Origin: a virus
Virus record (IMG/VR): IMGVR_UViG_3300032245_001170
Location: 1 to 64,000 of that record
Reading direction: 5' to 3' (one strand)
Length of the DNA stretch: 64,000 nucleotides
The notes below the pieces were generated by a model. The model did no database searches and was not told the origin of the DNA. It worked only from the letters and a program-made list of their open reading frames with translations. Each line of letters opens with the position of its first letter. Within the stretch, counting starts at the first letter, position 1. Positions 8,083 to 32,248 of the stretch are shown here, in pieces. A program made the translations under genes and the position numbers.

Positions 8083-11000
8083 GTGCCAATTAATATTACC
8101 GCAGCTGGTGGAGAAGGTACTCACTCTTTTGCCAAAACAAATGTAAACGTTGCTGAAGACTACATTTATTATAAGAATACTGGTGCGGATATTATCCCTG
8201 CCAACATGTCTTTAGGTAAAACCTTTATTTATACTCCTGGAGTAGGATCTCTTTCAGGAATTTCTTCTGGAGACCTGCTTTATGTCGTAACCTCTAACCC
8301 TAAACAACTCAAATTTAGTGCTAGCTCAGGTGGAGCAGCTGTAAATATTACTGCTGAGACCGCGGGATCAATTAAATTTAATACTCCAATTGTGTACGCT
8401 AATAAACTTAATATTGACGGACAAACAGCTAATCGTCAAGCAGTTAAGTACTTTACAGATAGCACTCCACTTACAGGGCTTGTTAGCGGCAGTACATACT
8501 TCTTGCGTAACGTTTCTATTTCTGACTTTGCTGGAGCTCAAGCTCTATATACCTTAACAAGCAACACCCATACATTTACAAGTGGAGGCGTAACAGGGGC
8601 TAATCCACCAACTATTGCACAACTTCGTGCAGCTTATACAACCGCCACTGCTTGGAGAGATACTTATCTTCGTCAAGGCGACTATCAAGGTTACCAAGAT
8701 TGGACAGTCCCTGTATCAGGTACTTACTCATTTAACGTAAAGGGTGCTTCGGGTTACGAAGGTTCTGGTGGTGGTGCTGCGGGACGAGGAGCAATTGTCG
8801 AAGGTCGTATACAGCTTACTAAAGGCGAAATTATTACAGTTGTTGTTGGACAAAGAGGTGCTGCACCATCCTCAGGAACTATTTGGGGAGGTTCTGGCGG
8901 TGGAACATTCGTTGTTCGTAAAACAGGTAAACAACCACTATTTATTGCTGGTGGAGGATCTGCAGATGCAAATGGTGCTGCAGGTAGAGACGGTCATTTA
9001 GGAAATATTGCCGCAACATCTACTTCAGGAATTGCTTCGGGCGGTAACACAGGTTTTGGTGGTCTTTCTACTCCGGGATATTCTGCTGGTGGAGGAGGGT
9101 TCCTGGGTGTTGGAGAAAATGCAACTACAGGTGAACTTGGAGGTGGAAGTTTCCAAAATGGTTTAGGAATTACCTCGTCTAACCTCAGAGTTGGAGGTTA
9201 CGGTGGCTTTGGTGGTGGAGGTCAATCAGACGGCCAACAACAGGGTCAGTCCGGAGGAGCCGGTGGCTATTCTGGTGGCGGTGGAGCTAGAAATACACTT
9301 CCACAACAAGCTGGTGGCGGTGGAGGTTCATTCATTACCACCCTTGCAACTAACGTAGCTACTTCTACAGGTCTTTGGGAAGGCTCTGCAACATTTGGCG
9401 CTGCGGGTGCTATTACTAACCTTAACGCCTATAACACAGGCGACGGAAACGTTGTAGTTTCTCTTGTAAACTCCTTTACAACTGGACACACTGTTCACCC
9501 AACAGCGGCAGATGCTGATGCAGGAACTAACGCAATTGCAATTGCTCCTGCTGGATCGTCTTTCCATGCATTTGTTCCTATCACGGTAGATCTTGGAAGT
9601 AACACTTTCCATTTTCCAGACGCACACAACCTTATTACTAACGATGCAATTACCTATACATCTAGTGGAACACTAGTTGGGGGTATGGCATTAAATACAA
9701 TCTACTATGTAGAAAAAATTAATAACTTTAGCTATCAAATTAGCGCATCTCCTACATTAACCCCTAAGGTAGATTTAACTACTCCAAGCTTTAGTACAGA
9801 CGATACCTTTGCTAAGGTAATCGTAAACATTGCCACAAATACTCTTACTATCCCATCCCACGGTTTCTTGGCTAATCAGCCAATTAGATACCAGACAAAT
9901 GGTGGAACACCTATTGCTCCACTACAAAACAACGCTACTTACTATGTAAAGCAAGTAGTAGACAATAACAACATTACTCTTAGCCAATCTCTAAACGGCC
10001 CAGTTATTGATCTAACTGCTGCTGGAACTGGCGTTGGTCACTCTTTCGTATACGTTGTTGTAAACATCGTAGAAGACAGTATTTACATTCCAGGTCACGA
10101 TTTAGTTACCGGACAAAGAGTTGTTTACTCTAACGGTGGAGGAACAGGAATTGGCGGACTAACTAACGGAGCCCAGTACTTTATTTTCAAGGTAGATAAC
10201 AACATTGTTAAACTATCTACAAATAAGGCTGGAACTGCAATTGTTAACCTAACCTCTGTAGGAACCGGTAACCATACCCTAACTACAGCCTCTGTAGACT
10301 TTGCAACAGAAACAATCTCTATCCCATCACACGGCTTTAGCCAAGGTGAATTGGTCCAGTATGACGCAGTAGGTCAGACAGCTATCGGAGGCTTAACCTC
10401 AGGTAACCCTTACTACATCATCCTGATTGACGGAGATAACATCAAGCTTGCTACCTCTCTTGAAAACGCTACATCTGGAACAGCGGTTAACTTAACCACT
10501 GCTGGTGTTGGACGTCACAGAATTTTATCTCTATCTAAATCCCCAGACGGAACTTACACAATTGCGTCTATTCCATCTCCAACTACCTTTACGGTATCCG
10601 CAGGAGGTTTTGTACCTGCAATTGTAAAAACCTTTACACCTCGTACAGTTATTGATACTCAACAAAATAACTTAAAGTTAGTTTCACACGGTTTCTTGAC
10701 TACTACAAAAGTTCGGTATAACAATAACGGTGGAACAAGTATTGGTGGCTTAACCCACAATACTGACTACTACGTAGTTGTTATCAACAAAGACTATGTT
10801 CGACTTGCAACAACTGCAGAAAACGCAGCATCTGGTGTTGTTATTTCCTTTACTGACTTTGGTGCTGGAGTAGACCATTCACTCACTAGCTTCCAAATTA
10901 ACGGAAACGTTACCGGTTCAGGTACAGTGTCCACTGCTTCTGGAGGAACTCTAGTTACAGGCTTTAATACAGCTTTCTCTAAGATTCTTAAGGTTGGAGA

Positions 11001-13671
11001 TCGTTTACGTATCTTCCCACCAAATACAACTAATACAAAGACATTTGCCGCAGCTAACGTAAATACCGGTGCGGATACAATTACTATTACTTCCCACGGT
11101 TACGTAACTACAGACGTTGTTCAGTTCCTTCAAGGAACTGGTGTTGCCCCTGGTGGTACTACAACTGCACAGTACTACTACATTGGTCGCGTAGATGCTA
11201 ATACCGTAAAACTGTATAACAGCGCTGCAGATGCGAACTCTGGTACTGGCGCGGTAGACTTAACAACTACAGGTACTGGAACAGACTTTACTTTAACTAA
11301 GACTACTCCTTCAGCACCAATCATTCGTCGTATTACAGCTATTGGTTCTGATACACAGGTAACTGTTGACCGAGCTTATGCAACTACTTACACAGCAGTT
11401 TCTTACGCTTACTCAACCTTTATTTACACACGACCTCAAGGATATAACCTACACCGCCCATTTGATGGTGGAGTTGAGATGTCCGTAGGTATTGGTAGCT
11501 CTTGGGCTCAAATTATTCGACAAACACGTAAGTACTTCCGTTACCAGTCAGGTAAGGGTTTACAAACTTCGTTTGGTATCAACTTCAAACCAACTATTGA
11601 CCTTGAAGATCTAAAGCGTATTAGCTCAACTACATTTCAAGCTACTACTCGTAGACCTCACGGTTTAATTAACGGTTTGTATATCGAGATCTCTCAGGCT
11701 GAAACTTCTACCGGTGAGACAAGCACCCTATACAACGGTATTTTCCAAGTAACGGTTCTTGATCCAACAAACTTTACATGCCTTGCAACTAGTACTCTAC
11801 CTACAGGAGCTGAGTCTAAAGCTTACGGATTCCCACAATTCTATGTACGTTATTGGACAAACGGAGCTGTACGTGCAGGTATGTTTGATTTCCAGAACGG
11901 CATGTTCTTCGAATACGACGGTCAAAAGATTTGGGCTGTTCGTAGATCTTCTACTCAACAGATTGCCGGAACAGTGGCCGCTTTACAGGGAACTGAGTTC
12001 GTATTTGGTAGTGGAACTACTTTTACTACCCAACTAGATGTTGGTGACTATATTGTTATGCGTGGACAGTCCTATAAGATTTCTAGCATTATCAGCGATA
12101 CTCGCCTAACTATTAAGCCAGAGTACAAGGGTTCTACTGGAACTGAAAAAGAATTTGATCCAGGTAATGGAACTACCGGCGTTGTAAGAGTTGCTACCGA
12201 TACTTTTAATATCATTGGTCACGGTTTTAGCAATAACTTACCTGTAACCTACAACTCTATTGATGGAACTCCTATCGGAGGTCTTATCAACGGCCGTACA
12301 TATTACATTGATTTAATTGATAACAATAACTTTGCTCTGAAGGCAACTCCAGACTCAGTAACAGACGTAGCTATTGCGGATGCCGGTGCGGGAACACCTC
12401 ACTCATTTACTCCAGCAAAGTCTGGAATCATTGTTACTAAGACAGTGGATACACGTACCCCTCAAGAAGAGTGGAGCCTAGACAAGTGCGATGGCACCGG
12501 AGTCACAGGCTACAACCTTAACCTAGGTACTATTCAGATGGCCTACATGGACTACTCTTGGTACGGTGCGGGTAAGATCCGTTACGGCTTTAAGACAAAA
12601 GAGGGTGAAGTTCAATATGTACATGAGTACATTCACAACAACTTCCAGCTTGAGTCTTACTTCCGTTCAGGTAACTTGCCTACTCGCTATGAGGTAGTGA
12701 CCTTTGATAACCCAACTTACATTCCGTTCCTATTCCACTGGGGTACCTCAGTTATTATGGACGGTAAATTTGATGATGACAAGGCCTACTTGTTCTCTCA
12801 GAACAGTAACACACTTGCTATCTCAGGAACAACAACCAAAACCTTTGGTTCTACGGCAGTTATAACAGCCACAGATAGAATTAACATTCCGTCTCACGGT
12901 TTTGCTACTGGTGATGCAGTTGTGTTTGAAGGACGTACTCGTACAGGCTTGATTGGTACAAACATCAACAACCCTCAAACTGCAAACACTGTGTTCCATC
13001 CCTATACGAATCTTCAAAATGCCCTTACATACTATGTAAGAAGTATCGATGCAAACAATATTGCCTTGCATGGATCTGCTGCGGACGCTACGTTTAGTTC
13101 GGGTACTGGTCAAAACACAATTGACCTACAGACTCAAGGTAACAGTCAGTTTACCTTCTACATCTACCCAGCTGGTGCGTACAACAATGCCTCCGGAGCT
13201 GCTTATCAACCACTCATCTCAGTTCGTTTGTCACCATCAGTATCAAGCGGTTTAACAGGTAAGCTTGGTGATCGAGATGTTATTAACCGAATGCAGCTAC
13301 GTATGAAAGAAGTTGCGGTATCCACTACTCAGCTTGTAGACGTTAAGCTCCTTATCAACCCTCGTCTAAATAACCTTAACTTTACTGGAGTTGTTTCTCC
13401 ATCACTTACTCAGATCATCCAGCACACTGGTAACGATACTGTTTCGGGTGGAACTCAGATTTACAACTTCCGTGCTTCAGGTGGTGCTAGCGGTGCGGAT
13501 CAAGCAACCAGCGTAACTATTGACGATTTGTTTGAACTTTCGAACTCTATCTTAGGTGGAGACTCTGTGTTCCCAGACGGACCGGATATTCTAACTGTTG
13601 CGGTTTCTCGTTTAACAGGTAGTACAACACAAACATCTGCTAAGTTAACGTGGACTGAAGCACAGGCATAG
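8083..13671 (+). CDS. Giant virion structural/fibre protein (glycine-rich domain plus tandem beta repeats)
   Basis: 1862 aa; repeated TITIPSHGF…IGGL…YY…IKLA units; RQTRKYFRYQSGKG and DYSWYGAGKIRYG motifs. Confidence 0.8.
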   Translation: MPINITAAGGEGTHSFAKTNVNVAEDYIYYKNTGADIIPANMSLGKTFIYTPGVGSLSGISSGDLLYVVTSNPKQLKFSASSGGAAVNITAETAGSIKFNTPIVYANKLNIDGQTANRQAVKYFTDSTPLTGLVSGSTYFLRNVSISDFAGAQALYTLTSNTHTFTSGGVTGANPPTIAQLRAAYTTATAWRDTYLRQGDYQGYQDWTVPVSGTYSFNVKGASGYEGSGGGAAGRGAIVEGRIQLTKGEIITVVVGQRGAAPSSGTIWGGSGGGTFVVRKTGKQPLFIAGGGSADANGAAGRDGHLGNIAATSTSGIASGGNTGFGGLSTPGYSAGGGGFLGVGENATTGELGGGSFQNGLGITSSNLRVGGYGGFGGGGQSDGQQQGQSGGAGGYSGGGGARNTLPQQAGGGGGSFITTLATNVATSTGLWEGSATFGAAGAITNLNAYNTGDGNVVVSLVNSFTTGHTVHPTAADADAGTNAIAIAPAGSSFHAFVPITVDLGSNTFHFPDAHNLITNDAITYTSSGTLVGGMALNTIYYVEKINNFSYQISASPTLTPKVDLTTPSFSTDDTFAKVIVNIATNTLTIPSHGFLANQPIRYQTNGGTPIAPLQNNATYYVKQVVDNNNITLSQSLNGPVIDLTAAGTGVGHSFVYVVVNIVEDSIYIPGHDLVTGQRVVYSNGGGTGIGGLTNGAQYFIFKVDNNIVKLSTNKAGTAIVNLTSVGTGNHTLTTASVDFATETISIPSHGFSQGELVQYDAVGQTAIGGLTSGNPYYIILIDGDNIKLATSLENATSGTAVNLTTAGVGRHRILSLSKSPDGTYTIASIPSPTTFTVSAGGFVPAIVKTFTPRTVIDTQQNNLKLVSHGFLTTTKVRYNNNGGTSIGGLTHNTDYYVVVINKDYVRLATTAENAASGVVISFTDFGAGVDHSLTSFQINGNVTGSGTVSTASGGTLVTGFNTAFSKILKVGDRLRIFPPNTTNTKTFAAANVNTGADTITITSHGYVTTDVVQFLQGTGVAPGGTTTAQYYYIGRVDANTVKLYNSAADANSGTGAVDLTTTGTGTDFTLTKTTPSAPIIRRITAIGSDTQVTVDRAYATTYTAVSYAYSTFIYTRPQGYNLHRPFDGGVEMSVGIGSSWAQIIRQTRKYFRYQSGKGLQTSFGINFKPTIDLEDLKRISSTTFQATTRRPHGLINGLYIEISQAETSTGETSTLYNGIFQVTVLDPTNFTCLATSTLPTGAESKAYGFPQFYVRYWTNGAVRAGMFDFQNGMFFEYDGQKIWAVRRSSTQQIAGTVAALQGTEFVFGSGTTFTTQLDVGDYIVMRGQSYKISSIISDTRLTIKPEYKGSTGTEKEFDPGNGTTGVVRVATDTFNIIGHGFSNNLPVTYNSIDGTPIGGLINGRTYYIDLIDNNNFALKATPDSVTDVAIADAGAGTPHSFTPAKSGIIVTKTVDTRTPQEEWSLDKCDGTGVTGYNLNLGTIQMAYMDYSWYGAGKIRYGFKTKEGEVQYVHEYIHNNFQLESYFRSGNLPTRYEVVTFDNPTYIPFLFHWGTSVIMDGKFDDDKAYLFSQNSNTLAISGTTTKTFGSTAVITATDRINIPSHGFATGDAVVFEGRTRTGLIGTNINNPQTANTVFHPYTNLQNALTYYVRSIDANNIALHGSAADATFSSGTGQNTIDLQTQGNSQFTFYIYPAGAYNNASGAAYQPLISVRLSPSVSSGLTGKLGDRDVINRMQLRMKEVAVSTTQLVDVKLLINPRLNNLNFTGVVSPSLTQIIQHTGNDTVSGGTQIYNFRASGGASGADQATSVTIDDLFELSNSILGGDSVFPDGPDILTVAVSRLTGSTTQTSAKLTWTEAQA

Positions 13672-13680
13672 GGGGAGACC

Positions 13681-14856
13681 ATGGCGATTGTTCGACTTGG
13701 GGCTTACACACCTGCCGCCAATACTTCATATGCACTTTATAATGTTACTACTTCGCACCTTGTATCTGTAATAGCTGCTAATACTTTAACCTCTAGCACA
13801 ACAGCTACTAAGGTAGATATTTGGGTTGTTCCTCAAGGAGTGTCTACTACTAGTGGGTACGCGTATGTTACTTCTAACTTAGAAGTCGGTTTGGGTCAGG
13901 CTTTTGAAACCTTTAAGTTTGGCGTAGTTGCTGGAGATACTTTATTTGTTAAGTCTACGACTGCCGGAACTTCTTTTTTAGTTCAAGGAATGTCTCAAGA
14001 TTCTGAATACAGCATTAATGATGTGCCAATTACTTTCACTAATAAAATCATTAGGGGAAATAATAATACTGTATACCCGGAAATAGGAACGACCTCAGAA
14101 AGACCAAGTGCTGCTGAAGTAGGCTATTGGCGGTATAACACTGATTTAAATTACATTGAATTTAAAACACCTACAGGTTGGGCAGCAGCTGCTGGACCTA
14201 CCGGGCCTGCTGGATCAACGGGTAGTTCTGGACAAGGTTTATCTTTAAAAGGAACTTACGCAAGTCTTGCAGCATTGCAGGCTGCAGTTCCTACCGGAAC
14301 TATCGGTGATGGGTACTTAGTTGGACAAAACCTATACGTATGGTCTGCAACAAATAATGCTTGGGTAGACACGGGACAAATTGTGGGGCCAACTGGTCCT
14401 ACTGGCCCTTCAGGAGGCCCTACAGGCCCTACAGGTCCACAAGGACTTCAAGGATCCACTGGACCTACAGGTCCTGCGGGAGCAGACGGTAGTCCAGGAA
14501 GCGTAGGACCAACAGGCCCTACAGGTTCAAGTGGATTAAGTATTGTTGATAATTTTCAAGTAACAAATGCTGGAACAGGTTCCTACACTATAGACGGAGT
14601 TACTAGTAACCCCACTTTAACTTTAGTAAGAAATCAAACTTACTTTTTTACGGTAAATGCATCTGGCCATCCATTTTGGTTTCAAACAACCTCTGGAGCT
14701 TACAATTCAGCAAATACTTACAGTACTGGGGTAACAAACGGCGGAGATGATGTGGGCGGTATTACATTTACTGTTCCTGCCGAAGCTCCCAATACGTTAT
14801 ACTACATATGTCAATTCCATTCATCTATGAATGGCACGATTAACGTGATTGGTTAG
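13681..14856 (+). CDS. Collagen-like fibre protein with C-terminal cupredoxin-like domain
   Basis: GPT repeats; C-terminal GHPFWF…[13 protein letters not shown]. Confidence 0.8.
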
Positions 14857-14866
14857 GGGTAAATAA

Positions 14867-16348
14867 ATGCCAGTAGTACGTTTAGGAAGCTCTAACCCTC
14901 TAAAAGATGTACAAACTACCCTAGTTACTGCTACTCGGGGATATGTTGTTTCGGTTATTGCTGCTAATAAAGGTGAGGTAAGCGCTACCTGCAGTGTTGC
15001 TGTGATACCTTCTGGTGGAACTTTAAATTCTAATGGAGTCTATATTATTAGAAACATTAGTGTTGGGGCCGGGCAGTCTTTTGAAACTTTTAGGTTTGCA
15101 ATAAATATTGGAGATGTTGTTACAGTAATAGGAAGCAGCGATAATTTTTCTTATTATGTAAACGGCGCTTATGAAAATATTGGAAATCAGTACGTAACCT
15201 ATAACGCAGGGCCACCACCGTTTCCGTCTATTGGAGATATTTGGATTAGCTCTATAACAAACGCTACCTCATTTTGGAATGGTTCTGAGTGGAACGTGGC
15301 TATATCTCAAGGACCAACCGGACCTACAGGTTCTTTTGGTGCTACAGGTCCACAAGGCTTAACTGGATTAACTGGTCAAACTGGAGCTACCGGCCCAACA
15401 GGTCCAATAGGCGCTGGACTTAATATCCTCGGATCTTTTTCTACATATGCAGCTTTGATCGCAGCGTACCCTACAGGAAGTATCGGAGATGCTTACTTAA
15501 TCTCTGGAGATCTTTGGGTATGGTCTGGAACTCAATGGCTTAACACTGGAAACATCCTTGGCCCAACTGGTCCTACCGGCCCTACTGGAGCTGCTTCACA
15601 GGTAACTGGGCCTACTGGGCCTACCGGACCAGTTTCCACAGTTCCATCTACAGTAACGGGCCCTACAGGCCCTACTGGATCTACAGGGCCGACTGGACCT
15701 CTTGGACCCACGGGACCAACTGGACCTCAAGGAGTTATTGCCGGAACTTCTCCTATTGTTTATAACGCGGGTACCTCTACAGTATCGTTTGATACAGATG
15801 CTTATGAGACTACGTTAGTTGGGTCTACTAATCAAGGGGCTACCACAGTAGATGTGTTCCCACGCATTGGAAACTTTACTGGCACGCCTTCTAGCGAAAC
15901 AACTTACTTTACTTTCTTTACGCCACGCATAACTACCTCTGTAACTTCTATCTCTGTAGCATCAGCCTCAACACAAACAACTGGGCAAAGCCTAGTTAGG
16001 TTTGGTCTATACACAGTAGATGGTTCTGGCAATGCAACATTGGTAGCTAGAACATCCTCAGACAGTACGATCTTTAGTGCCCTAAATACCGTTTATACCA
16101 GAACCTTTAATACAACTGGTGGGTATCCAGCAAGTTATACGTTGACTGCTGGCACTAGGTATGCAATTGGCGTAGTAGTTGTAGCCTCCACTGTCGGAAC
16201 TGTGTACACCGCCTTTAATGCTATTCCTGCTCCATTAAGCACCTTATCACCACGAGTTACAGGATTAGTAGCTTCAACTAGCGATCTACCTACCAGCGCT
16301 ACTAGCTACTCAACAAGCACGGTAGGAATTTGGGCGAGGTTATCATGA
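14867..16348 (+). CDS. Collagen-like fibre protein (N-terminus paralogous to 13681..14856)
   Basis: VRLG…VSVIAAN…GQ.FETF.F shared N-terminus; GPT repeats; Ser/Thr-rich beta C-terminus. Confidence 0.8.
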
Positions 16349-16666: not shown

Positions 16667-17743
16667 ATGAAGGTAGCTGTATACACGATTGCATTAAACG
16701 AAGTTCAGTTTGTAAAGAAATGGTACGAGTCTGCAAAAGAAGCGGATTATCTTTTAATTGCTGATACCGGCTCTACAGATGACACAGTAGCGTTAGCTAA
16801 GGGACTGGGAATAAACGTAATAAGCATTGGTGTAAAGCCTTGGAGATTTGATGACGCTAGAAATGCATCTTTAGCCGCCCTACCTTTAGATATAGATTAC
16901 TGCATCGCTTTGGATATGGATGAAGTTCTTATTGAGGGCTGGAGACCAGAGTTAGAAAAAGCCTTAAAAGAAGGTTGGACTCGCCCTAGGTATCAATATA
17001 CGTGGAATTGGAAAGAGGATGGCACCCCTGGATTGCAGTACGGTGGGGATAAGATCCATACTCGTAAGGGGTATCGTTGGAAACATCCAGTACACGAAGT
17101 TCTAACTACCAATCAAAGTAATGAAATACAGGGTTGGATAGGATTACAGATACACCATCATGCCGATAATAGTAAGTCTCGTGCTCAATACATGGACCTA
17201 CTTCAACAATCTGTAATAGAAGATCCTCATGATGATAGAAATGCTTTTTACTTTGCTAGAGAACTATTCTTTCATAATCAAAGTGAGAGGGCTATACAAG
17301 AGTTTGAACGTCACCTTTCCCTTCCTAAAGCTAAATGGCCACCAGAAAGAGCAGCCTCTATGCGCTACCTGGCTCGTCTAGTAATAGACACCCGGGAAAA
17401 AGAAGAGTGGTTAAAGAAAGCAGTTCGTGAAGCCCCCAATAGACGAGAGGCGTTTGTAGAGCTAGCTGAGTTCTACCACGACCACAGACGTTGGGAAGAA
17501 TGCCTTACTGCTGCTGAAAATGCAATATCTATAACAGAAAAGCCTATGGAGTACCTGTGCGAAGAGTTTGCTTGGGGACACATGCCTTATGATTTTGCTG
17601 CTTTAGCTGCCCATAATCTAGGAAATTCAGAGAAAGCCCTGACTTACGGCACTAAAGCTGTAGAATTAAATCCAGACGAACTCAGGCTTCAGTCTAACTT
17701 AGCCTTTTATTCACGGGAGACCCTAGATGCCAACAATTTATAA
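16667..17743 (+). CDS. Glycosyltransferase family 2 with C-terminal TPR repeats
   Basis: DTGSTDDT, FDDARNASL, LDMDE (DxD), W..PVHE motifs; helical TPR-like C-terminal half. Confidence 0.9.
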   Translation: MKVAVYTIALNEVQFVKKWYESAKEADYLLIADTGSTDDTVALAKGLGINVISIGVKPWRFDDARNASLAALPLDIDYCIALDMDEVLIEGWRPELEKALKEGWTRPRYQYTWNWKEDGTPGLQYGGDKIHTRKGYRWKHPVHEVLTTNQSNEIQGWIGLQIHHHADNSKSRAQYMDLLQQSVIEDPHDDRNAFYFARELFFHNQSERAIQEFERHLSLPKAKWPPERAASMRYLARLVIDTREKEEWLKKAVREAPNRREAFVELAEFYHDHRRWEECLTAAENAISITEKPMEYLCEEFAWGHMPYDFAALAAHNLGNSEKALTYGTKAVELNPDELRLQSNLAFYSRETLDANNL

Positions 17744-18939: not shown

Positions 18940-21162
18940 ATGGCAACATACGCTAAAGTTGCCGGGACTTGGAGAACAGTTACTACTGACTCTCCTACCA
19001 ATGGTGTTTGTGGTTATGTAAAAGTAAACGGAACTTGGCGTACAGTAAATCAATCTTATGTAAGAATAAGCGGTGTCTGGAGATCAACCTGTACAGCTCC
19101 GGGTCAACAACCGGCAGCAATACCTGAGAGCATTTGTTATCGCCCAAATTATTGTTTAAATGGCACTAACGGCGTTATTCTTCCTACCACAGAGCCTTGC
19201 TATTTAGCTGACGGAGTTACCTTAGGAACAAGAACTGCTCCGTACACTTGTCAAACAGATCCTGGGTGCATAACGTACACAGTACCCGCAGGAGTGTGTT
19301 CTTCTCCAGATCCAATTATTTCAGTAGTGTCTGAAGAAATTGGAGACTGTGAGTTTTGGGGAGGTTTGTCAGGCTGTACTAGTGGTTATGCAAAACGCAT
19401 AACAAGACGTATGAGTGATTCATCTTTAAAGGTTTCATACAGCTGCTGTAATCCTTTAGACCCTAACTTAAAATATTACTGCACACTACGTCCATTTTCA
19501 ACAGGACAATGTTTGAATGAATTAAAAAGTACTGATTTTACAGGAGTTGTTGTCGCTGGTCAGGGAGAGTGGGTTTGTGAAGAGTTAGGCATAACTTCAT
19601 ATCCTTCTTGCTCTACTGCTGAAAACTGCAACGTTCCAAAAACAACTTCATCTACTTATGAAAGTTGCGGCTATTTAAACACAGGTCAACGCCTTGTAAC
19701 TACCAATACTTACCAAAGCTGGTGTGTAAAAACTTTAGAAACTGTTATTGGTGATTGTGTTGGAGCAGACGACCCTTGTGGTGGAAAATATTGTGGTGAT
19801 GGTAGTGGAGAAGAAGAGTATGCCATTAGCACCTCTACGTGTCCATCGGGAAGTGCTATTAGATACAAATGTCTAACTCCTGAAGGTTGTGCAGTCAAAT
19901 ATACTTTTAGACGATGCACTGCGTACACTCCACCTGTAGTTATTGGAGACGTGTTTCAACAAATCTACTACATTACTGAGGTTTGTAGGAATGCTTTAGG
20001 ATCTGCAATAAGCTGTAATCAATATTCTTCGTATACTGTTCCTGCCTCTACAAGCAGTTGTACAGTAACTTCAAGTACAAGTTCTTATTCTCCTTGTCCA
20101 CAAATAACAACAAATCCTACTGGACCTACAGCGCCAACTGGACCTACAGGACCTTCTGGTTGCGGTTGTATAGATGATGATGCAGGTTATTGCAACAATG
20201 GGGTTTGGTATCAATATCAATATGATCCAAACCCAGCATGTCCAAACTGTCCTGCAAGAAATACTGGTGGTAGCTGTATATCAGAGAGTTTACCAGCTCA
20301 ATGTAACGGCACCTGTGTTTACGGAAGCGGAACACAAAGTTGTGGTATAGGTGGTACACAAACATACTGTATTACAGCAGTAGGATGTCCTGACATCTAC
20401 GGACCTTGTATTGTTCCAGGATCAGGAGCAACAACTCCTACAGAACCTCCACCAAGTAACCCAACAGGCCCTACCTTTACGGTAGTTCCAGGAACTACAG
20501 TAACTAGTCCTGGACCAACTGGAGACACCGGAGGTACAACTACTTGGACAACAACTCAAACAACTGATGGTGGATCCGTATTAAATTTAATAGATGACAC
20601 TACTGGGCAAACTATTAACACAGAGCCTATTGTATTCCCACCTCCAAATGAGTTCTTTAATATTGGCGGGGGTGGTACAGGTAAGAGTATTAACATCAAT
20701 ACTTTAGTACGAACTCGTGATGGATTAGTTCCTGCTTTTGATCTAAAAGTTGGAGATAAGCTGCTGTCTGCAGATATTGATACTTTCCCATACGACAACT
20801 TACTTACTACAGATATGGAGCTTATTGAGTGGACTGCTCAAAACCCTCACATTAACCTTGTAGAAACTGAAATTGTCAATCTTCGTACCCGCATATCTAA
20901 GTGGGCAATCATTGTTGACTCAGACATATTCTCAGACACCCACTACATCCTAGTTAACCGTAATGATGTGACTAAGTTTGTAAAGGCTATAGATCTTGAA
21001 AGCACTGACCTTATCTGGTCAAATACTTACCATAACTGGGTAGCTATTGGGGTGTTGAGGAAGGTAGACGTAGACCACGAAGTGGTTTCTATTGACTGCG
21101 AACCTTATGATATATTCTTCACTGAAAGGATGTTGACCCACGACTCAAATACGGTTGACTAA
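18940..21162 (+). CDS. Cys-rich fibre-tip-type protein with C-terminal Hint (intein-like) domain
   Basis: N-terminal Y.KV.GTWRTV repeats; 42 Cys in first ~490 aa; Hint blocks SININTLVRT…DLKVGDKLLS, SDTH, VVSIDCEPYDIFFTERMLTHD. Confidence 0.8.
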   Translation: MATYAKVAGTWRTVTTDSPTNGVCGYVKVNGTWRTVNQSYVRISGVWRSTCTAPGQQPAAIPESICYRPNYCLNGTNGVILPTTEPCYLADGVTLGTRTAPYTCQTDPGCITYTVPAGVCSSPDPIISVVSEEIGDCEFWGGLSGCTSGYAKRITRRMSDSSLKVSYSCCNPLDPNLKYYCTLRPFSTGQCLNELKSTDFTGVVVAGQGEWVCEELGITSYPSCSTAENCNVPKTTSSTYESCGYLNTGQRLVTTNTYQSWCVKTLETVIGDCVGADDPCGGKYCGDGSGEEEYAISTSTCPSGSAIRYKCLTPEGCAVKYTFRRCTAYTPPVVIGDVFQQIYYITEVCRNALGSAISCNQYSSYTVPASTSSCTVTSSTSSYSPCPQITTNPTGPTAPTGPTGPSGCGCIDDDAGYCNNGVWYQYQYDPNPACPNCPARNTGGSCISESLPAQCNGTCVYGSGTQSCGIGGTQTYCITAVGCPDIYGPCIVPGSGATTPTEPPPSNPTGPTFTVVPGTTVTSPGPTGDTGGTTTWTTTQTTDGGSVLNLIDDTTGQTINTEPIVFPPPNEFFNIGGGGTGKSININTLVRTRDGLVPAFDLKVGDKLLSADIDTFPYDNLLTTDMELIEWTAQNPHINLVETEIVNLRTRISKWAIIVDSDIFSDTHYILVNRNDVTKFVKAIDLESTDLIWSNTYHNWVAIGVLRKVDVDHEVVSIDCEPYDIFFTERMLTHDSNTVD

Positions 21163-21164
21163 AT

Positions 21165-21680
21165 ATGACTACAGACGGCGCACAATATCTACAGTTTGAG
21201 TTTCCCGAGAAATTAACGGGGTTTTGGGTACATGTTTGTGTTGGGTTAGAAAGTTCTTCGTTTACCTATATTGTCTCAATATATAAGAACGATGACTACC
21301 CTACAGGTACCGTAATAATATCTAAACACCTGCCCTATGCCTATCCGGATATGTATGGCTGTTTTGATAATGGGTACCAAGTTCAAAGGATGTATACAAA
21401 CCCTATACACAGACGTAATGGGTACTGGGTTCCTTTTGGAGTGTTTTTAAAGAAGTTCTTTGCAGATCAGTTTGGCGTAAATGTAGATGGCACTGGAGAC
21501 CGCAGTAAGCAGACCGATAGAATCTACGCTAGAACTAGAGCTGTGTTGGGAGAGTCTTCTTATGTGCCCCCTATCAAAGGTGGACGGATTGAGTATGATG
21601 AGGCGGAGCCTCCTAGGGATCCAGCGTTTCCCTTGATATGGTTTGGTCAAAGAATTGGGGGTTTTAATGAGCAAGGGTGA
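21165..21680 (+). CDS. Hypothetical protein with GNAT-like acetyl-CoA binding motif
   Basis: VQRMYTNPIHRRNGY resembles GNAT motif A. Confidence 0.45.
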   Translation: MTTDGAQYLQFEFPEKLTGFWVHVCVGLESSSFTYIVSIYKNDDYPTGTVIISKHLPYAYPDMYGCFDNGYQVQRMYTNPIHRRNGYWVPFGVFLKKFFADQFGVNVDGTGDRSKQTDRIYARTRAVLGESSYVPPIKGGRIEYDEAEPPRDPAFPLIWFGQRIGGFNEQG

Positions 21681-22128
21681 AGAGCATATTCTTTTAAGCG
21701 TATTGACTAAGCCGGTAAAAGTATTTTCCTCAAATGTACCTATTGGTACAGAGCCGTCAATTAACTATGCTCATAAAGAAATTAAAAAGTTGCTAGACGA
21801 TTCCTGCAGCTACTACGAATTGAGTCGAACCCACTCAACTTTCTATCTATCATCCGAGTTAATTAAGGGCGTTCGAACAGATGTTTGGTATGACACCGGA
21901 GGGGTTAGGATTCCCTGTTTCTCGGGAGTGTATGTGCTCGAGGCTGAAGAAGGTAGCTTTATTACCGTAGGTGGGGTTTCTAATTTGCTAGCTTCTGGTG
22001 ATATATACCTTTGGGAAGCAGGAAAAAAGATTACCTATAGTCATGAAAATACAGTTATGCTAGGATTCAATATTGCACCGAAATCAATGCTTAAAAATCA
22101 AGACCTCAGTATGTGGTCAGAAATCTAG
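21667..22128 (+). CDS. Degenerate 2OG-Fe(II) oxygenase-like (DSBH) protein
   Basis: FSGVYVL…GDIYLW…LGFNI pattern; HxD/H position reads WYD; ATG 21667 preferred. Confidence 0.45.
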   Translation: MSKGEEHILLSVLTKPVKVFSSNVPIGTEPSINYAHKEIKKLLDDSCSYYELSRTHSTFYLSSELIKGVRTDVWYDTGGVRIPCFSGVYVLEAEEGSFITVGGVSNLLASGDIYLWEAGKKITYSHENTVMLGFNIAPKSMLKNQDLSMWSEI

Positions 22129-22137
22129 GAGAATAAT

Positions 22138-22416
22138 ATGTCTGAAGATAACCTATCCTTATGGCAAAAATATAAGAAAAACTTAGGCGACACTCGTCCA
22201 TGGGACCTCTTAGATAAGAACGTACCTCGTACTACAGATGCGGTTGCCAAGAAACGTTTAGAAATATGTAATGGTTGCGCCCACCTAACTAAGGTAACTC
22301 AGCAATGTAAGAAGTGTGGATGTTTCATGCACCTTAAAGTTAAGATTTCGGCTGCTGAATGTCCTATTGGTAAGTGGAGTAAAGTAGAGGAAGTTAAGGG
22401 GCCGGAGAGTGAATAG
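22138..22416 (+). CDS. Small Cys-rich metal-binding protein (DUF6171-like)
   Basis: RLEICNGC…QCKKCGCFM..K…ECPIGKW; SD AGGAG. Confidence 0.7.
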   Translation: MSEDNLSLWQKYKKNLGDTRPWDLLDKNVPRTTDAVAKKRLEICNGCAHLTKVTQQCKKCGCFMHLKVKISAAECPIGKWSKVEEVKGPESE

Positions 22417-22885
22417 GGTTATACAGGACCTTTTTTCAGAAAGAGACTTTGAGTATCTTCAGAAGTATGCCCTAGAACATCACGAGGCTTTAAAAAAAAT
22501 CAAGCCGGAGCATGAGTCTGGCTATGGAGTTTTACAACTAAAGGATACCCCAGAATTACGCATGCTTCATGAAAAGCTTTTGCCTGTAGCTAGGCAAATG
22601 TTTGGTAGCGAGTCCCTTATACCTAATTGGCAGCACTTAGATATCTATGCTGGGCCTCAGCCAACACAAACCCCCAAGAAGTTTAGTGAAGATGCAGATT
22701 ATGTAATAAGCCTTGTTGCTTACCAGCACCTGGGGTGGGAAACCACGGTAGGTGGGGAGCTGTTTGAATTAGTAGAAAATGAGGGGCTTTTCTTTAGTGC
22801 TGACCAAGAGTTTATACGTTCAGCCTTTCCAGAACCGTTTAATAACGTGGTGGCTAACGCTTTCTTTTTCTTTATTCAGCCTTAA
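22409..22885 (+). CDS. Degenerate 2OG-Fe(II) oxygenase-like protein
   Basis: ARQMFGSESLIP…W…FP.P.NNVV pattern of phage oxygenases, but iron ligands not recognisable. Confidence 0.45.
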   Translation: MNRVIQDLFSERDFEYLQKYALEHHEALKKIKPEHESGYGVLQLKDTPELRMLHEKLLPVARQMFGSESLIPNWQHLDIYAGPQPTQTPKKFSEDADYVISLVAYQHLGWETTVGGELFELVENEGLFFSADQEFIRSAFPEPFNNVVANAFFFFIQP

Positions 22886-26106: not shown

Positions 26107-27633
26107 ATGACAACTTACAGCAGACCGGGAGTCTTCATCAATGAAGTGCCCCTGCCTCAACAAGTTGAACTAGCGAACAATGGACAGGCTCGTGGAGCGT
26201 TCCTTGGTGCATTTGCACAAGGACCTACAGACGCACCAGTTCTAATTCAAAGCTGGTACGACTTTGGAAAAACTTTTGGAAGCCTATCAGATAGCTACCC
26301 AGCTACTTGGTCAGTCTATTCGTTTTTCGCAAACGGTGGGCGTAGTGCATATATTAAGCGTGTTACGGGTGCAGGTGCTACAGCAGCATCAGTAGTACTA
26401 CGTGACCGTGCAGCTACACCTCTTAGCACACTTCGAGTAACAGCAAAAAGCGCTGGTGCTTGGGGTAACGGATTAAAGGCAGAAGTTAGATCCTCATCTA
26501 CAACAACCTTTAACTTAATCATTTCAGATGCAAATGGAATCCTAGAACAGTTTACTGATCTAAGCATGTCCACAACAAACAGCCGCTATTGCGTAGCATA
26601 CGTAAACTCAGCTTCATATTACGTAACACTTACTAACCTAGCAGCTGGTACAGCAGCACCAGACAACCAACCAGAAATTGCTGGACAAAAGGCATTTACA
26701 TCTGGAGCAGATGGTTCAGCACCTACACGTGCTAACTACCAAACTGCACTTACCACATTTGATGCAATTACTAATCCAATGCTTCTAATTAACGCAGACG
26801 CATCTTATGCTTTCGCATCAGGCGGAGAAACTAACGCCCGTGCAGCTAAGGTTCTTCTAGATAACGACGTGACTGCTTATGCAGATGCTCGTGGAGATGT
26901 ATTTGCCCTAATTGATCCACCAGCTGGAAGCACAGCTGCGGAAGCAATTACTTACGCAATTGATGGCTGTGGAGCAGTAGACGGCGGAAACGCAGCAACC
27001 TACTTCCCATGGGTAGTAATTCCAGACCTACTAAAGTCTGCACCTGGTGCAACTCGTGTAGTTGGTCCTGCAGCAATTGCAGCAGGTAAGTACCTAGAAA
27101 CAGATGCTTCTCGTGGCGTATTCAAGACCCCAGCTGGTTTTGGAACAAAAATTGGAAGCGCAGTTGCTTTAGAGCGTTCACTTACAAATGCTGAACTAGA
27201 CTCTCTAAACTCAGCTTCTAAGCCAGTAAACGCTATTCGTAACGTTCCTGGTGCAGGAATTGTAATTATGGGTGGTCGCACTCTAAATAACTCAACTGGA
27301 GAACGCTACATTAACGTACGTCGTTCATTGATTTTCTTGAAGAAAGAACTCACTGATCGCAGTAATTTTGCAGTGTTTGAGAACAACAGCGAAGTGCTTT
27401 GGTCTCAACTTCGTAACGCACTAGGCAATTTCCTTCGGGAATACTGGTCTCAAGGTGGGCTACGTGGATCAACTCCAAGTGAAGCATTTTACGTAAGATG
27501 TGATGCTTCAAACAACACAGCTACAGATATTTTAAACGGTCGAGTAAACATCGAAATTGGTGTAGCTGTTGAATATCCTGCAGAATTCATTGTGATCAGC
27601 ATTGGGCAGATCACCGGAAGCGCTTCGGCGTAG
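26107..27633 (+). CDS. Tail sheath protein
   Basis: YSRPGVFINE start; RGVFKTPAG, GGRTL, RYINVRR, AVFENN, PAEFIVI. Confidence 0.95.
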   Translation: MTTYSRPGVFINEVPLPQQVELANNGQARGAFLGAFAQGPTDAPVLIQSWYDFGKTFGSLSDSYPATWSVYSFFANGGRSAYIKRVTGAGATAASVVLRDRAATPLSTLRVTAKSAGAWGNGLKAEVRSSSTTTFNLIISDANGILEQFTDLSMSTTNSRYCVAYVNSASYYVTLTNLAAGTAAPDNQPEIAGQKAFTSGADGSAPTRANYQTALTTFDAITNPMLLINADASYAFASGGETNARAAKVLLDNDVTAYADARGDVFALIDPPAGSTAAEAITYAIDGCGAVDGGNAATYFPWVVIPDLLKSAPGATRVVGPAAIAAGKYLETDASRGVFKTPAGFGTKIGSAVALERSLTNAELDSLNSASKPVNAIRNVPGAGIVIMGGRTLNNSTGERYINVRRSLIFLKKELTDRSNFAVFENNSEVLWSQLRNALGNFLREYWSQGGLRGSTPSEAFYVRCDASNNTATDILNGRVNIEIGVAVEYPAEFIVISIGQITGSASA

Positions 27634-27653: not shown

Positions 27654-28301
27654 ATGGCAACAGCAGCAAAAAAGACCGCGTTTACTAACGTGTTAAGTTC
27701 GCTTGCTACAGATCCCGTTCGTAATTTTCGGTTTCTTGTAGACTTCCTACCTAACTCCCAAACGCCGGCCTATGGTTTCGACACTAAAATGGGTTTCACC
27801 TCAGTATCAGGCTTAACAGTCTCTACTGAAGCAATCCAATACCGTGAGGGTGGGTACAACACCACTGTTCACCAATTACCTGGACAAACTTCTTTTAGTC
27901 CAATCACACTTAGCAAGGGCGTAATGTTGGGGGATTCCTCACAGGTCGCTTGGATGAAGCGTTTATTCTCTGTAATTAGCTCAGGCGCTAAAGGTGGAGT
28001 AGGAGCAGATTTCCGATGCAATTTGGATATTCGTGTTCTTAGTCATCCAAACCCTGCAGGAATTAATGGAAGTGCGGCTAACGCAACACTTTCAGCAGCA
28101 GGAACTACAAACTCAGATGCGCCACACGTAGCTATTCGCTTTAAAGTGTACAATGCTTGGATCACAAACCTTTCATACAGCAACCTAGATGCTGGTGGAA
28201 ATAGTTTGATGGTAGAAGAAATGACCCTAGTTCATGAAGGTTGGGAAGCATCCTATGCTTCAGACCTAACAGTTGCTGGGTCAGCAGCAGATATCTCATA
28301 A
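27654..28301 (+). CDS. Tail tube protein (T4 gp19-like)
   Basis: DPVRNFRF, GFTSVSGL, YREGG, ITLSKG, YNAW, LDA…EEMTLVHEG. Confidence 0.92.
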   Translation: MATAAKKTAFTNVLSSLATDPVRNFRFLVDFLPNSQTPAYGFDTKMGFTSVSGLTVSTEAIQYREGGYNTTVHQLPGQTSFSPITLSKGVMLGDSSQVAWMKRLFSVISSGAKGGVGADFRCNLDIRVLSHPNPAGINGSAANATLSAAGTTNSDAPHVAIRFKVYNAWITNLSYSNLDAGGNSLMVEEMTLVHEGWEASYASDLTVAGSAADIS

Positions 28302-29302: not shown

Positions 29303-32248
29303 TTGGCAAATGCGTATGAGAACCTAGGCATTGACGACGAAGCGTTTACTGGGCAAAAAAGCGCTAACAAGTTCTTTGGAACCATCAACAAAGAGATTAA
29401 AAGTTTCCATAAAGAAATGGAAGCTATTGAAAAGCGTGCAGAAGCCTTCCGTGAACACATGGAGGCTGCAAGTAAGCTAGACCTTGACGGTACCGGTAAA
29501 TCTGGTAACACTATGGGTCGAAGTCTTGCAGACATGCCTGGAGGTGCTAAAAGAAGTACCGCTGCAAACGTTGGTTTAGGTGTAGCAGCCTTAGGTGCGG
29601 GTGCTATGGGCATCATGCCTAACACTATGACAGCAGTAACCCAAAGACTAACCGCTGAGGGTGTTGCAATGTACAGCTCTGGAGGAATGGGCTCCAAAGG
29701 AGTAATTGCTTCTGCCAACTCTACGATTGGTCGCGGTAATGCAACCAGTGCCATGGGACCAACTATGGCTATGGGGCAAATCCTGTCTCAAGGTGGTTAC
29801 GGTTCTCAATCAGTAAGCACACAGAGAATCATGAGCCAACTTGGTGGCATGAGCGCCATCAGTGGTATGAGCAATGAACAAGCCGCGGGAGCATACGCTG
29901 GACAAAACGGCATGAATATGCTGCGCCTAGGAATAAGACTTCGTGATCGAGAAGGAAATCTTAGAGCTCCTAATGAGATTATTAATGAGCTTTATTCAAA
30001 GATATATCGGGGTAAGACACCTAAGAATCCCGAGGTAATGTTTAGCCCTAACAGCATTGAATATCAGACAATCATGAACATTGCTGGTGGCGATCCAAAC
30101 CTCTTTAACGTATATACCAGCGGACTTATGGCTCGGTTTAAAAACAATAAGCCTCTTACAGCAAAGCAAATGTCCAGTGCTAAGGGCATGCTTGGAACTA
30201 TGGGCGTAGGCGGCGGAGTTCAAGCAAGTAACTTTAATTTTCAAAGCTCACAAAATAGAGCTTTAGGAGCAACAGAAGAAGGATTAGTTGGCGGGTATCA
30301 AGGTGCGCTTAGCGCAGCCGCTGCAGTCAACAACGGGTTCTCAGCCATGGCAGAGACACTACCAGGTGTTGTAAACGGCTTAGCAGCCCTTAAGGGAGTG
30401 CTACAGACCCTTCCTATGGCAGGCGGTGCAGGTGCCACAATGTCTGGCGCAGCAGGCATGCTTTCAAATGCATTAATGATGAAAATGATGTTTGGTCGGG
30501 GAGCAACAAGCCTCATACCTACAGTAGGGGCTGGAGCTGCAACAGGTGCGGGTGCAGGTGCGGCCGCTACCGCAGCAGGAGCAGGCGCCGCTGCAAGTAA
30601 GTTTGGTAAGTTTGCTGGAATGGGCAAAGCAGTACCAATTTTAGGTTCAGCTCTTTCTGCTTTTGGTGGATATCAAACTGCAAAAACAAAAAAGAAATTT
30701 GATTGGGGATCTGTACTATCTAGCGCAGCAATCGGAGGAGGTACGGGAGCTCTTATGGGCTCCGCAACTGGCCCTGGAGCACTAGTGACAGGACTAATTG
30801 GTGCGCTAATTGGTGGAGGATCAAACGCAGCAGGACAACTTCTAGGTGGTATGGGTGGTGGAGAGAGTACTGGACCATCCTCTAATTCTCCAGGAACCAC
30901 GCCTATGGCTATCAATCCTGCGCCAAACTATCAAAGAATTTCTTCTCAATATGGAATGAGAAACGATCCAAACAATCCTAAAGAAAGACATCACCACGGC
31001 GGTATTGATTACGCTATGCCTGTAGGAAGTCCCGTACTTGCTGCAGCAGATGGCATTGTAGATCAAGTAACTACTCAACCTAACTCTTCAAGAAGTTTTG
31101 GACACTATGTAGTTATTAAGCACGAAGGTTTTTTTACATACTACGCTCACTTAAGCAAGTCCGTAGTCAAGGTTGGACAAGAGGTTCGTCAGGGGCAGCT
31201 CATTGCTTATTCTGGTGGTAAGAAAGGTGCTTGGGGATCTGGAAGCTCTACAGGACCACACTTGCACTTTGAAGTTAGATTAAGTAAGGGAAGTAAGCAG
31301 TCTGTAGATCCTCAAAGTATCTTTGGAAAAATTAAATCAAAAGTATCTAGTATCTTTACTGGCAAAAGTTCTAAAGACGAAATAAGCGAAGAAGATCTCT
31401 CACAGTTTGTGTTGGGCGGTAATACGCCAAAAAGCACTCAATTTGCTGGTGGTCAACTACTTGCTGCAATTCAACGCGGAGGTCCGCTTAGCTACGGAGA
31501 TATATCTAAAGATGGTGCTTTAGATTACGCTAAAAAAGTCGGAGAAAGCTCTAGCGTATTAGACGGTCTTATGGGAGACAGTCAAATGACCGCTGCAAGC
31601 GGAGACAGCGGTGGCATGGCTTTTGGTTCTCGTAAAGGACTAGTAAATGCACTGTACAAAGAAGGCTTTCGTGGGAAGTCTTTGCAAACAGCTTTTGCGG
31701 TTGCTTTAGCTGAGTCTGGTGGCAGAGCTAAGGCGGTAGGGGACGAAAACTTAGTAAACAAAAAATATGGCCCAAGTTTAGGCCTATTCCAGATTAGAAG
31801 TTTAAAGGACCCTAAAAAGTATGGTGGAGGGGAATGGAGAGACGGAAAACGTTTAACTGACCCTTCGTTTAACGTTAAGGCCGCCTGGAACATTTCTAAT
31901 CAGGGTCAAAATTGGAAAGCTTGGTCTGCATATAATAACGGATCTTTTTCTAAGTTTTTAGATGATGCAGAATCTGCTTCAAAAGCAGCTGGAATTCCTG
32001 GTTACTTTTATGGCACTGACCGTACTAAAGAAGGTTTGGCTTACCTTCACCCAGACGAGATGGTTCTTAATAAAGGTCAAGCAGACCTTGTTAGAAACAA
32101 CCGCGGTAATGGTGGGGCAACGAGCATTAATGTTAGTATGACCGTTAATATTGCTAAAGCAGGAGATCAAGAAGTACTGGTTATGCTAGACAAATTTAAG
32201 AAAGCTATAGCTTCAGATCGAGATCTTGAACAGTTAGGTAAATACTAA
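29303..32248 (+). CDS. Tape measure protein with M23 peptidase and lytic transglycosylase-like domains
   Basis: Ala/Gly/Met-rich N-half; HGGIDY…YAHL…STGPHLHFEVR (M23); AESGG…GLFQI…WKAWSAY (lysozyme-like). Confidence 0.9.
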   Translation: MANAYENLGIDDEAFTGQKSANKFFGTINKEIKSFHKEMEAIEKRAEAFREHMEAASKLDLDGTGKSGNTMGRSLADMPGGAKRSTAANVGLGVAALGAGAMGIMPNTMTAVTQRLTAEGVAMYSSGGMGSKGVIASANSTIGRGNATSAMGPTMAMGQILSQGGYGSQSVSTQRIMSQLGGMSAISGMSNEQAAGAYAGQNGMNMLRLGIRLRDREGNLRAPNEIINELYSKIYRGKTPKNPEVMFSPNSIEYQTIMNIAGGDPNLFNVYTSGLMARFKNNKPLTAKQMSSAKGMLGTMGVGGGVQASNFNFQSSQNRALGATEEGLVGGYQGALSAAAAVNNGFSAMAETLPGVVNGLAALKGVLQTLPMAGGAGATMSGAAGMLSNALMMKMMFGRGATSLIPTVGAGAATGAGAGAAATAAGAGAAASKFGKFAGMGKAVPILGSALSAFGGYQTAKTKKKFDWGSVLSSAAIGGGTGALMGSATGPGALVTGLIGALIGGGSNAAGQLLGGMGGGESTGPSSNSPGTTPMAINPAPNYQRISSQYGMRNDPNNPKERHHHGGIDYAMPVGSPVLAAADGIVDQVTTQPNSSRSFGHYVVIKHEGFFTYYAHLSKSVVKVGQEVRQGQLIAYSGGKKGAWGSGSSTGPHLHFEVRLSKGSKQSVDPQSIFGKIKSKVSSIFTGKSSKDEISEEDLSQFVLGGNTPKSTQFAGGQLLAAIQRGGPLSYGDISKDGALDYAKKVGESSSVLDGLMGDSQMTAASGDSGGMAFGSRKGLVNALYKEGFRGKSLQTAFAVALAESGGRAKAVGDENLVNKKYGPSLGLFQIRSLKDPKKYGGGEWRDGKRLTDPSFNVKAAWNISNQGQNWKAWSAYNNGSFSKFLDDAESASKAAGIPGYFYGTDRTKEGLAYLHPDEMVLNKGQADLVRNNRGNGGATSINVSMTVNIAKAGDQEVLVMLDKFKKAIASDRDLEQLGKY

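Follow-up and report, generated by a model that had tools for sequence, protein, structure and literature searches.

Organization of the locus

Five consecutive genes on the + strand, here called A to E (18940–22885), lie in the fibre region of the phage record IMGVR_UViG_3300032245_001170 from IMG/VR, a virus record of 101,587 bp that CheckV rates as complete. The window, meaning the whole stretch of DNA analysed, is the first 64 kb of this record (64,000 nt). Gene A (18940–21162) encodes a protein of 740 aa that ends in a Hint domain, and it is followed by gene B (171 aa, 21165–21680), gene C (153 aa, 21667–22128), gene D (92 aa, 22138–22416) and gene E (158 aa, 22409–22885), all on the same strand. 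The genes lie where a first-pass annotation of this DNA had placed them and are as tightly packed as it described: a gap of 2 nt separates A from B, B and C overlap by 14 nt, a gap of 9 nt separates C from D, D and E overlap by 8 nt, and the next gene starts at 22895. The open reading frame (ORF) list starts gene C at a TTG codon (21643), but relatives carry a stop codon within that stretch, so the ATG at 21667 is the likely start. B to E are presumed to be non-structural. The interpretation favoured here, held with roughly even confidence, is that A is a self-processing fibre or adhesin precursor, that its Hint domain is co-inherited with B and C as a cassette, and that B and C act on the processing or on its product.

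The N-terminal body of A (residues 1–582; 18940–20685, + strand) is delimited by its homologues, its cysteine count and its predicted structure. Both the N-terminal repeats and the Pro/Thr-rich linker reported previously are borne out: three [YF]xKVxGxWRxV repeats, modelled as beta-hairpins, begin at residues 4, 26 and 40, and linkers rich in Pro and Thr span residues about 389–407 and 495–582. The body terminates in a Gly-rich segment, ...GGGGTGK582. The earlier count of 42 cysteines is correct for the beta-rich region of residues 24–490; C720, in the Hint domain, brings the total to 43. Every other structural protein in the window has 0–3 cysteines. About 35 of those in A are invariant in an alignment of 44 homologues. 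In all, 47 full-length metagenomic homologues were found (54–67 % identity), each named only ‘hypothetical protein’ and none with a Pfam domain. Likewise, a single-sequence Pfam search of A (E≤1) gave no match, including none to Peptidase S74.

The C-terminal Hint domain of gene A

The remainder of A (20686–21162, + strand) comprises the domain proper, Ser583–Asp735, a five-residue tail (Ser736-Asn-Thr-Val-Asp740) and the stop codon. Judged by profiles and structure prediction, residues 583–740 are a genuine Hint fold. The domain had been proposed in the first-pass annotation, which named the lack of a Hint fold as a reason to abandon its interpretation; sequence profile, Pfam, AlphaFold2 (AF2), Foldseek and VIA all agree that the fold is there. 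Single-sequence searches with the domain are nearly blank. An exhaustive HMMER search gathered 106 cluster representatives of the family, whose profile matches, among PDB sequences, the bacterial intein-like (BIL) domain 2lwy (E 2e-6), the gp41-1 intein (5e-6) and also a PolB intein, and whose individual members match the Pfam families PT-HINT, Intein_splicing, Hint_2 and Hint. The AF2 model has a predicted local distance difference test score (pLDDT) of 93–97 across residues 590–735. In a VIA comparison, all 29 chains at Z≥8 belong to the Hint superfamily; Hedgehog (1at0) was matched at Z 15.4, with a root-mean-square deviation (rmsd) of 2.1 over 127 aligned residues, BIL2 (6tmm) at Z 15.4 and 2lwy at Z 14.9. 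Foldseek aligned the model with 2lwy at E 1e-5 and a template modelling (TM) score of 0.78. Any assignment to the BIL type is tentative: 2lwy is the best match by sequence and by Foldseek, but the Pfam and PDB sequence scores are weak. A-type BIL domains are marked by a conserved His-Asn at the C-terminal end, and those of the B type by a C-terminal motif of their own.

The residues expected of an autoprocessing Hint domain are a putative nucleophile, Ser583; a block B of Ser665-Asp-Thr-His668, an SxxH variant of Thr-x-x-His; a block G of His734-Asp735; and a +1 residue, Ser736. Ser583, Ser665, His668, His734, Asp735 and Ser736 are invariant in the 44 homologues, and the block B His is at least 90 % conserved over the wider family. 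The K582|S583 junction aligns with Cys1 of canonical distant relatives (for example ...C|VQGDTLVRT), and the family grades into its most distant members, which have the canonical Cys1...His-Asn. For P0140, a protein of this Cys1...His-Asn type, no relative was found in IMG/VR. In nearly all 106 cluster representatives the domain lies at the extreme C-terminal end, a few residues before the stop, behind a low-complexity linker of 30–90 residues (poly-Pro, Pro/Thr or FGFTP-type).

As far as sequence can tell, the residues for an N–O acyl shift at Lys582–Ser583 are intact. In inteins, BIL domains and Hedgehog proteins, Hint cleavage proceeds by an N-terminal acyl shift to an ester or thioester. 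By the same chemistry Ser583, aided by the Ser665/His668 block, would turn the Lys582–Ser583 peptide bond into an ester, and resolution of that ester would free the Hint domain and leave a mature protein terminating at Lys582. The ester could be resolved by hydrolysis, by the +1 Ser, which would amount to splicing, or by an external nucleophile. Since the acyl-shift residues are intact, the simplest reading is that the Hint domain releases itself.

A Hint domain that stays in place as a permanent, unprocessed distal domain of the fibre is exceedingly improbable. No direct observation favours it, and what can be said for it is that the reactions would be slowed by having Asp where Asn is usual and Ser where Cys is. 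All residues for the N-terminal acyl shift are nevertheless invariant, and among the same relatives conservation is far higher in the Hint domain than in the body (71–95 % against 54–64 % identity). Receptor-binding tips do not behave in this way, and because of this difference the domain fits an enzymatic or assembly module better.

The invariant Ser736, preceded by His-Asp, raises the question of true protein splicing, in which a mini-intein would join Lys582 to a C-extein of five residues, SNTVD. A tail of 4–5 residues with the pattern S-x-[ST]-[IVL] is conserved in most clades linked to gene B, and inteins that end in Asp reportedly splice. Against this, more distant members of the family carry Gly, Ala, Arg, Lys or Phe at +1, a gain of five residues has no obvious purpose, and the host proteins are variable, with neither a conserved insertion site nor a homing endonuclease. 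Splicing is thus regarded as very unlikely. Two established classes were considered for the domain and rejected. A classical intein does not fit a module with no endonuclease, variable and unrelated host proteins, a five-residue tail and His-Asp rather than His-Asn; a Hog domain does not fit a protein that terminates five residues past Hint and has no sterol-recognition region.

Gene B

Gene B had been annotated as a GNAT-motif protein, and model and structure comparison lend some support to a GNAT-like fold. In a VIA search of 48,161 chains, the AF2 model (pLDDT 83.5) finds GNATs in nearly all of its top 50 matches, at modest Z scores of 5.0–7.0, and it lacks the N-terminal helices that characterize GNATs. 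A stretch resembling motif A, RVYTNPxxRRxGYW, is degenerate at its final position: set against the consensus Q/R-x-x-G-x-G/A it reads Arg83-Arg-Asn-Gly86-Tyr-Trp88, with Arg83 invariant and Gly86 at least 90 % conserved. Across motif A there is a weak alignment to the GNAT RibT (E 1.1), and a profile of B found nothing significant among PDB sequences. The tail, EPPRDPxxPxIWFxQRIGG, is conserved but poorly modelled. The family of B comprises some 49 clusters, all of which come from metagenomes and carry no annotation. Enzymes of the GNAT family take their acyl groups from thioesters and catalyse the attack of amines on these.

Genes C, D and E

For gene C there are only leads to a fold, possibly a double-stranded beta-helix of the cupin/2-oxoglutarate (2OG)-oxygenase kind: its Atlas model (pLDDT 0.59) has a TM score of 0.65 to the 2OG-FeII_Oxy_3 cluster and of 0.57 to cupins. 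Gene E has feature-based Atlas leads alone, to the same cupin/2OG-oxygenase fold; its profile found no match in Pfam or among PDB sequences, and hhalign detected no relation between C and E. The suggestion that both are oxygenase-fold proteins therefore stands as a weak lead, without its catalytic part: neither C nor E of the window has the His-x-Asp/Glu...His triad of 2OG-Fe(II) oxygenases. Distant E-like copies retain an HxD...H pattern, whereas the E of the window has lost both the HxD and the distal His. Oxidative tailoring by the C and E of this locus is doubtful because these iron ligands are absent.

Gene D is the Cys6 protein of the first-pass annotation. It belongs to DUF6171 (PF19668; 33.1 bits against a cut-off of 27, E 7e-8) and matches phrog_13558 (E 3e-17). 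Its six cysteines fall in a conserved pattern, PWD...CxxC-x10-CKKCGC-x13-CPxGKW, which is probably metal-binding. A literature search on DUF6171, of incomplete coverage, found no description of the present arrangement.

Distribution of the cassette

A search of IMG/VR from A returned 37 loci, 11 with a full-length Cys-rich protein. In most of the others likeness is confined to the Hint domain, at 43–50 % identity (37 % in locus L037), and the domain is joined to alternative bodies. One of these is another Cys-rich type; the others are PASTA-like proteins (about 370–460 aa, 1–11 cysteines) and proteins of 844–973 aa with WxxVK repeats. L037 aside, the loci with alternative bodies have B directly after the Hint gene and C, D and/or E close by. 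The reciprocal search, from B, returned 45 loci; a Hint domain lies just upstream in every locus that includes upstream DNA, and C comes after B in all of them. Other genes flanking the region in the window, such as those at 22895 and 25433, are undetectable in the distant loci, unlike Hint, B and C.

Tail, –1 and +1 residues and the presence of B and C downstream were tabulated for 42 distinct Hint ORFs. Of the short-tail K|S...HD|S proteins, 24 have 1.3 kb or more of DNA beyond the stop codon; in all 24, B begins 2–604 nt past that codon, and C is present too where there is enough DNA. No B accompanies Hint proteins that lack Lys at –1 and Ser at +1, nor is there one in L037 (F|S...VYN). Trees of Hint and of B recover the same supported clades; B and C accompany Hint across at least seven sequence clades and on at least three unrelated N-terminal bodies. 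The Cys-rich body is found in two of the clades, and so is the PASTA-like one.

The portable and conserved core thus consists of B, C and a Hint domain that has Lys at –1 and Ser at +1. Co-occurrence of all five genes, as first envisaged, holds for these three and fails for the other two, since D is found as well after homologues that lack the Hint domain and after Hint proteins that lack B, and E is variable, occurring in only some clades. Nor is the core specific to a Cys-rich body, to which the first-pass annotation had tied it: the same Hint, B and C serve PASTA-like proteins with 0–11 cysteines. For that reason disulfide folding is unlikely to be the purpose of the cassette, and a disulfide-folding cassette was rejected. 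A precursor-plus-tailoring locus like those of ribosomally synthesized and post-translationally modified peptides was also rejected, as the substrate is a structural protein of 580 residues and C and E are without catalytic residues.

Several loci differ in layout. In L095–L101 and L104 (G006:63000-79000) there are two Hint-ending proteins, of 917–977 aa and 459–464 aa, both VK|S...VHD|S and both with a conserved tail of 38–45 aa (..LYQ[EQ]WKLSQ..) in place of the 4–5 residues; B and C lie downstream of the shorter protein only. In L103 (G003:79000-87000) and L104 several C-like paralogues lie downstream of the fibre genes, together with ORFs whose C-termini resemble the 2OG-binding ends of 2OG oxygenases (..RYT..W..), which suggests a variable island of cupin/oxygenase-fold genes. 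Additionally, a degenerate DNA pattern found the Hint motif I[DN]CEPYDxFFT in L105 (JBBRXZ010000043.1), a 9.6-kb contig assigned to a Saccharimonadales metagenome-assembled genome. It is probably a phage contig that was mis-binned, and so provides no evidence on the host.

Comparison with known systems

In fold, the Hint domain of A comes nearest to BIL, Hog and mini-intein domains. With BIL domains (Clostridium thermocellum BIL4, 2lwy; Tetrahymena BIL2, 6y75/6tmm; Z 14.9–15.4, rmsd 1.8–2.0) it shares the absence of an endonuclease, variable host proteins, an N-terminal nucleophile and the block B His. It departs from them in that Ser1 replaces Cys1 and His-Asp replaces His-Asn, in standing at the very C-terminal end with a tail of 4–5 residues, and in being carried by phage fibre-like proteins and linked to a gene of GNAT fold; the likeness in sequence is marginal (profile E 2e-6). 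With the Hog-Hint domain of Hedgehog (1at0) it shares the fold and an arrangement of N-terminal cargo and C-terminal Hint. In Hedgehog-type architectures processing releases or modifies the new C-terminus of the cargo. Unlike Hedgehog, A has no sterol-recognition region, Ser1 instead of Cys1, and no known acceptor.

In phages the nearest functional analogue of the Hint domain, taken by analogy of position and proposed action, is Peptidase S74, the intramolecular chaperone of tailspikes and fibres (K1F endosialidase, T5 pb1), likewise a portable C-terminal fibre module, which cleaves itself off once assembly is complete, cleavage in A being predicted only. The S74 fold is unrelated, hydrolysis is by a Ser-Lys dyad without an acyl-shift ester, and S74 directly abuts the folded fibre, whereas the Hint domain sits behind a long disordered linker. 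Gene B in turn recalls the chaperones of tail-fibre assembly whose genes lie just past those of the fibres, T4 gp38 and the Tfa proteins of Mu and P2, in that it immediately follows the fibre gene and co-varies with the C-terminal module rather than the body. It differs in its GNAT-like fold, with no similarity to the Tfa family, and in that the C-terminal module is Hint and not a receptor-binding tip.

Searches of an annotated phage collection gave zero matches for the DNA of the region; at the protein level they matched Erwinia jumbo phages alone, and there only in the Hint part. In one of these, the cultured phage pEa_SNUABM_33, gp111 (YP_010301893.1) is a collagen-repeat ‘virion structural protein’ from the tail gene cluster that also has a Hint end, 25 % identical to A across residues 584–739. 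Its gene (NC_061447.1 72756-74195; locus L102) encodes a canonical Cys1...THEH...AHN|T Hint domain with a 10-residue tail. Unlike A, it has the canonical Cys1...Ala-His-Asn|Thr, and instead of a B-like gene it is followed by one for another collagen-like structural protein. Some proteins of uncultured phages are already auto-annotated in UniProt as ‘Hint domain containing protein’. Given gp111 and these entries, Hint on phage structural proteins is already on record. A literature search, of incomplete coverage, found no description of Hint on phage structural proteins or of its link with a GNAT-fold gene, and as far as this search reaches the strict pairing of Hint with a GNAT-fold protein is undescribed.

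Possible roles of the cassette

In the favoured interpretation the product of gene A would be the precursor of a virion fibre or adhesin-type protein, and its last 158 residues a Ser-type Hint autoprocessing module on a flexible linker. Hint, the GNAT-fold B and the cupin-like C would form a three-gene cassette grafted onto unrelated N-terminal bodies. We infer that B and C most probably intervene in processing itself or at the activated or new C-terminal Lys, as a cofactor, a chaperone or a catalyst of acyl transfer, and D and E would be neighbours in the fibre region, outside the cassette.

Several observations weigh against this interpretation. In the Hint domain of A, Asp takes the place of the usual terminal Asn. 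The match of B to GNATs reaches just Z 5–7 and is not significant by Foldseek (best E 0.13), the final position of its Q/RxxGxG/A motif is Trp (Trp, Leu or Lys in the family), a single-protein Pfam search gave no match for it, and among the longer proteins searched none had B fused to another domain, the last being weak evidence. Gene C has no family match in Pfam or by profile among PDB sequences, and not one His is conserved in its 18 sequences. Hint proteins of the type YY|S...THD|G are followed by D or C-like genes but not by B; one complete relative (G003, 112 kb) encodes such a protein and a C-like gene and has no B anywhere in its genome, so that B is not needed for Hint function in general. 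L095-type genomes have two K|S Hint proteins to one B. The synteny, moreover, may come partly from shared ancestry, since all loci are from similar freshwater phages of about 100 kb.

Part of this also agrees with a simpler explanation: the Hint domain would serve assembly or folding only and then remove itself, which makes it comparable in function to the S74 chaperone, and its ester would be hydrolysed. B to E would be accessory genes with no link to it, lying in a variable island and encoding, for instance, enzymes that modify fibres or act on the host. The existence of Hint proteins without B, the presence of D after Hint-less homologues, the ORFs resembling 2OG oxygenases that relatives have in this region beside several C-like paralogues, and the origin of all loci from similar phages are consistent with it. 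It does not account for the finding, in both search directions, that B occurs only directly after a Hint gene, even when the body of A has been replaced, or for the detection of Hint, B and C in distant loci where the flanking genes at 22895 and 25433 are not found. A low-complexity linker of 30–90 residues would also be odd for a folding chaperone. This explanation is a real contender, yet an unlikely one.

Some Hint domains transfer their cargo: that of Hedgehog passes it to cholesterol. In the BUBL system of Tetrahymena, BIL2 ligates the N-terminal cargo to a Lys amine through an isopeptide bond (PMC8616854). With these precedents, an amine or hydroxyl could attack the Lys582 ester in A and fix the end of the fibre covalently to an acceptor, and the GNAT-like B would direct the transfer. 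Conceivable acceptors are virion proteins, adjacent subunits, small molecules and amines of the host cell wall. In structure, BIL2 ranks with the best matches of the Hint domain of A; B shares the fold of enzymes that catalyse amine attack on thioesters; the linker is long and flexible, and a strictly conserved Lys at –1 is found only where B is present; and the PASTA-like bodies of relatives suggest a link to peptidoglycan. Transfer to an amine is therefore a serious option, in view of the disordered linker, the Lys at –1 with B, the GNAT fold and the BIL2 precedent. However, the argument is inferential throughout, the acceptor is hypothetical, the CoA-type motif of B is degenerate, and the correlation of Lys(–1) with B amounts to about three independent clades. 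Hint-driven ligation as a whole is accordingly rated as quite unlikely.

A more specific form of ligation makes the Hint domain a stored acyl-transfer warhead. The Lys582 ester would remain latent on its long tether until B, using this protein-borne ester in place of acyl-CoA, couples it to an amine, giving an isopeptide link between the end of the fibre and a virion protein, neighbouring subunits or host cell-wall peptides. Relatives that bear PASTA-like bodies suggest host cell-wall peptides as the target. This form is considered decidedly improbable.

Genomic context

The window holds a myovirus-type structural module, with the major head protein at 73–1149, the sheath at 26107–27633, the tube at 27654–28301 and the baseplate wedge at 36787–38343. 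The tape measure gene (29303–32248) encodes a tape-measure-sized protein with an M23-type metallopeptidase/endolysin-like domain at residues ~545–690. Collagen-like fibre genes lie at 2781–5194 and 13681–16348, and between them is an ORF of 1862 aa with only 2 cysteines (8083–13671). Among these Thr-rich collagen-like fibre genes is also a GT2-TPR glycosyltransferase (16667–17743), which has C-terminal TPR repeats and a weak match to the TPR_P4H substrate-binding domain, and which may glycosylate the fibres or the Pro/Thr linkers. The candidate head-closure gene at 22895 has no family match.

Significance

To our knowledge, self-cleaving C-terminal modules of phage fibres have so far been known only as S74 chaperones. 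With a Hint module, virion assembly or host attachment would come to involve ester chemistry, which could allow ligation or modification of the C-terminus. If the warhead form were true, phages would possess an ATP-independent ligation system that is sortase-like or BUBL-like; the chance that a really new ligation system is present is modest. The cassette is compact, portable among unrelated fibre bodies and conserved in numerous freshwater phages that are abundant, and these features make it a practicable candidate for a new protein-ligation tool. For the phages themselves, the cassette could explain how some uncultured members mature or anchor their adhesins.

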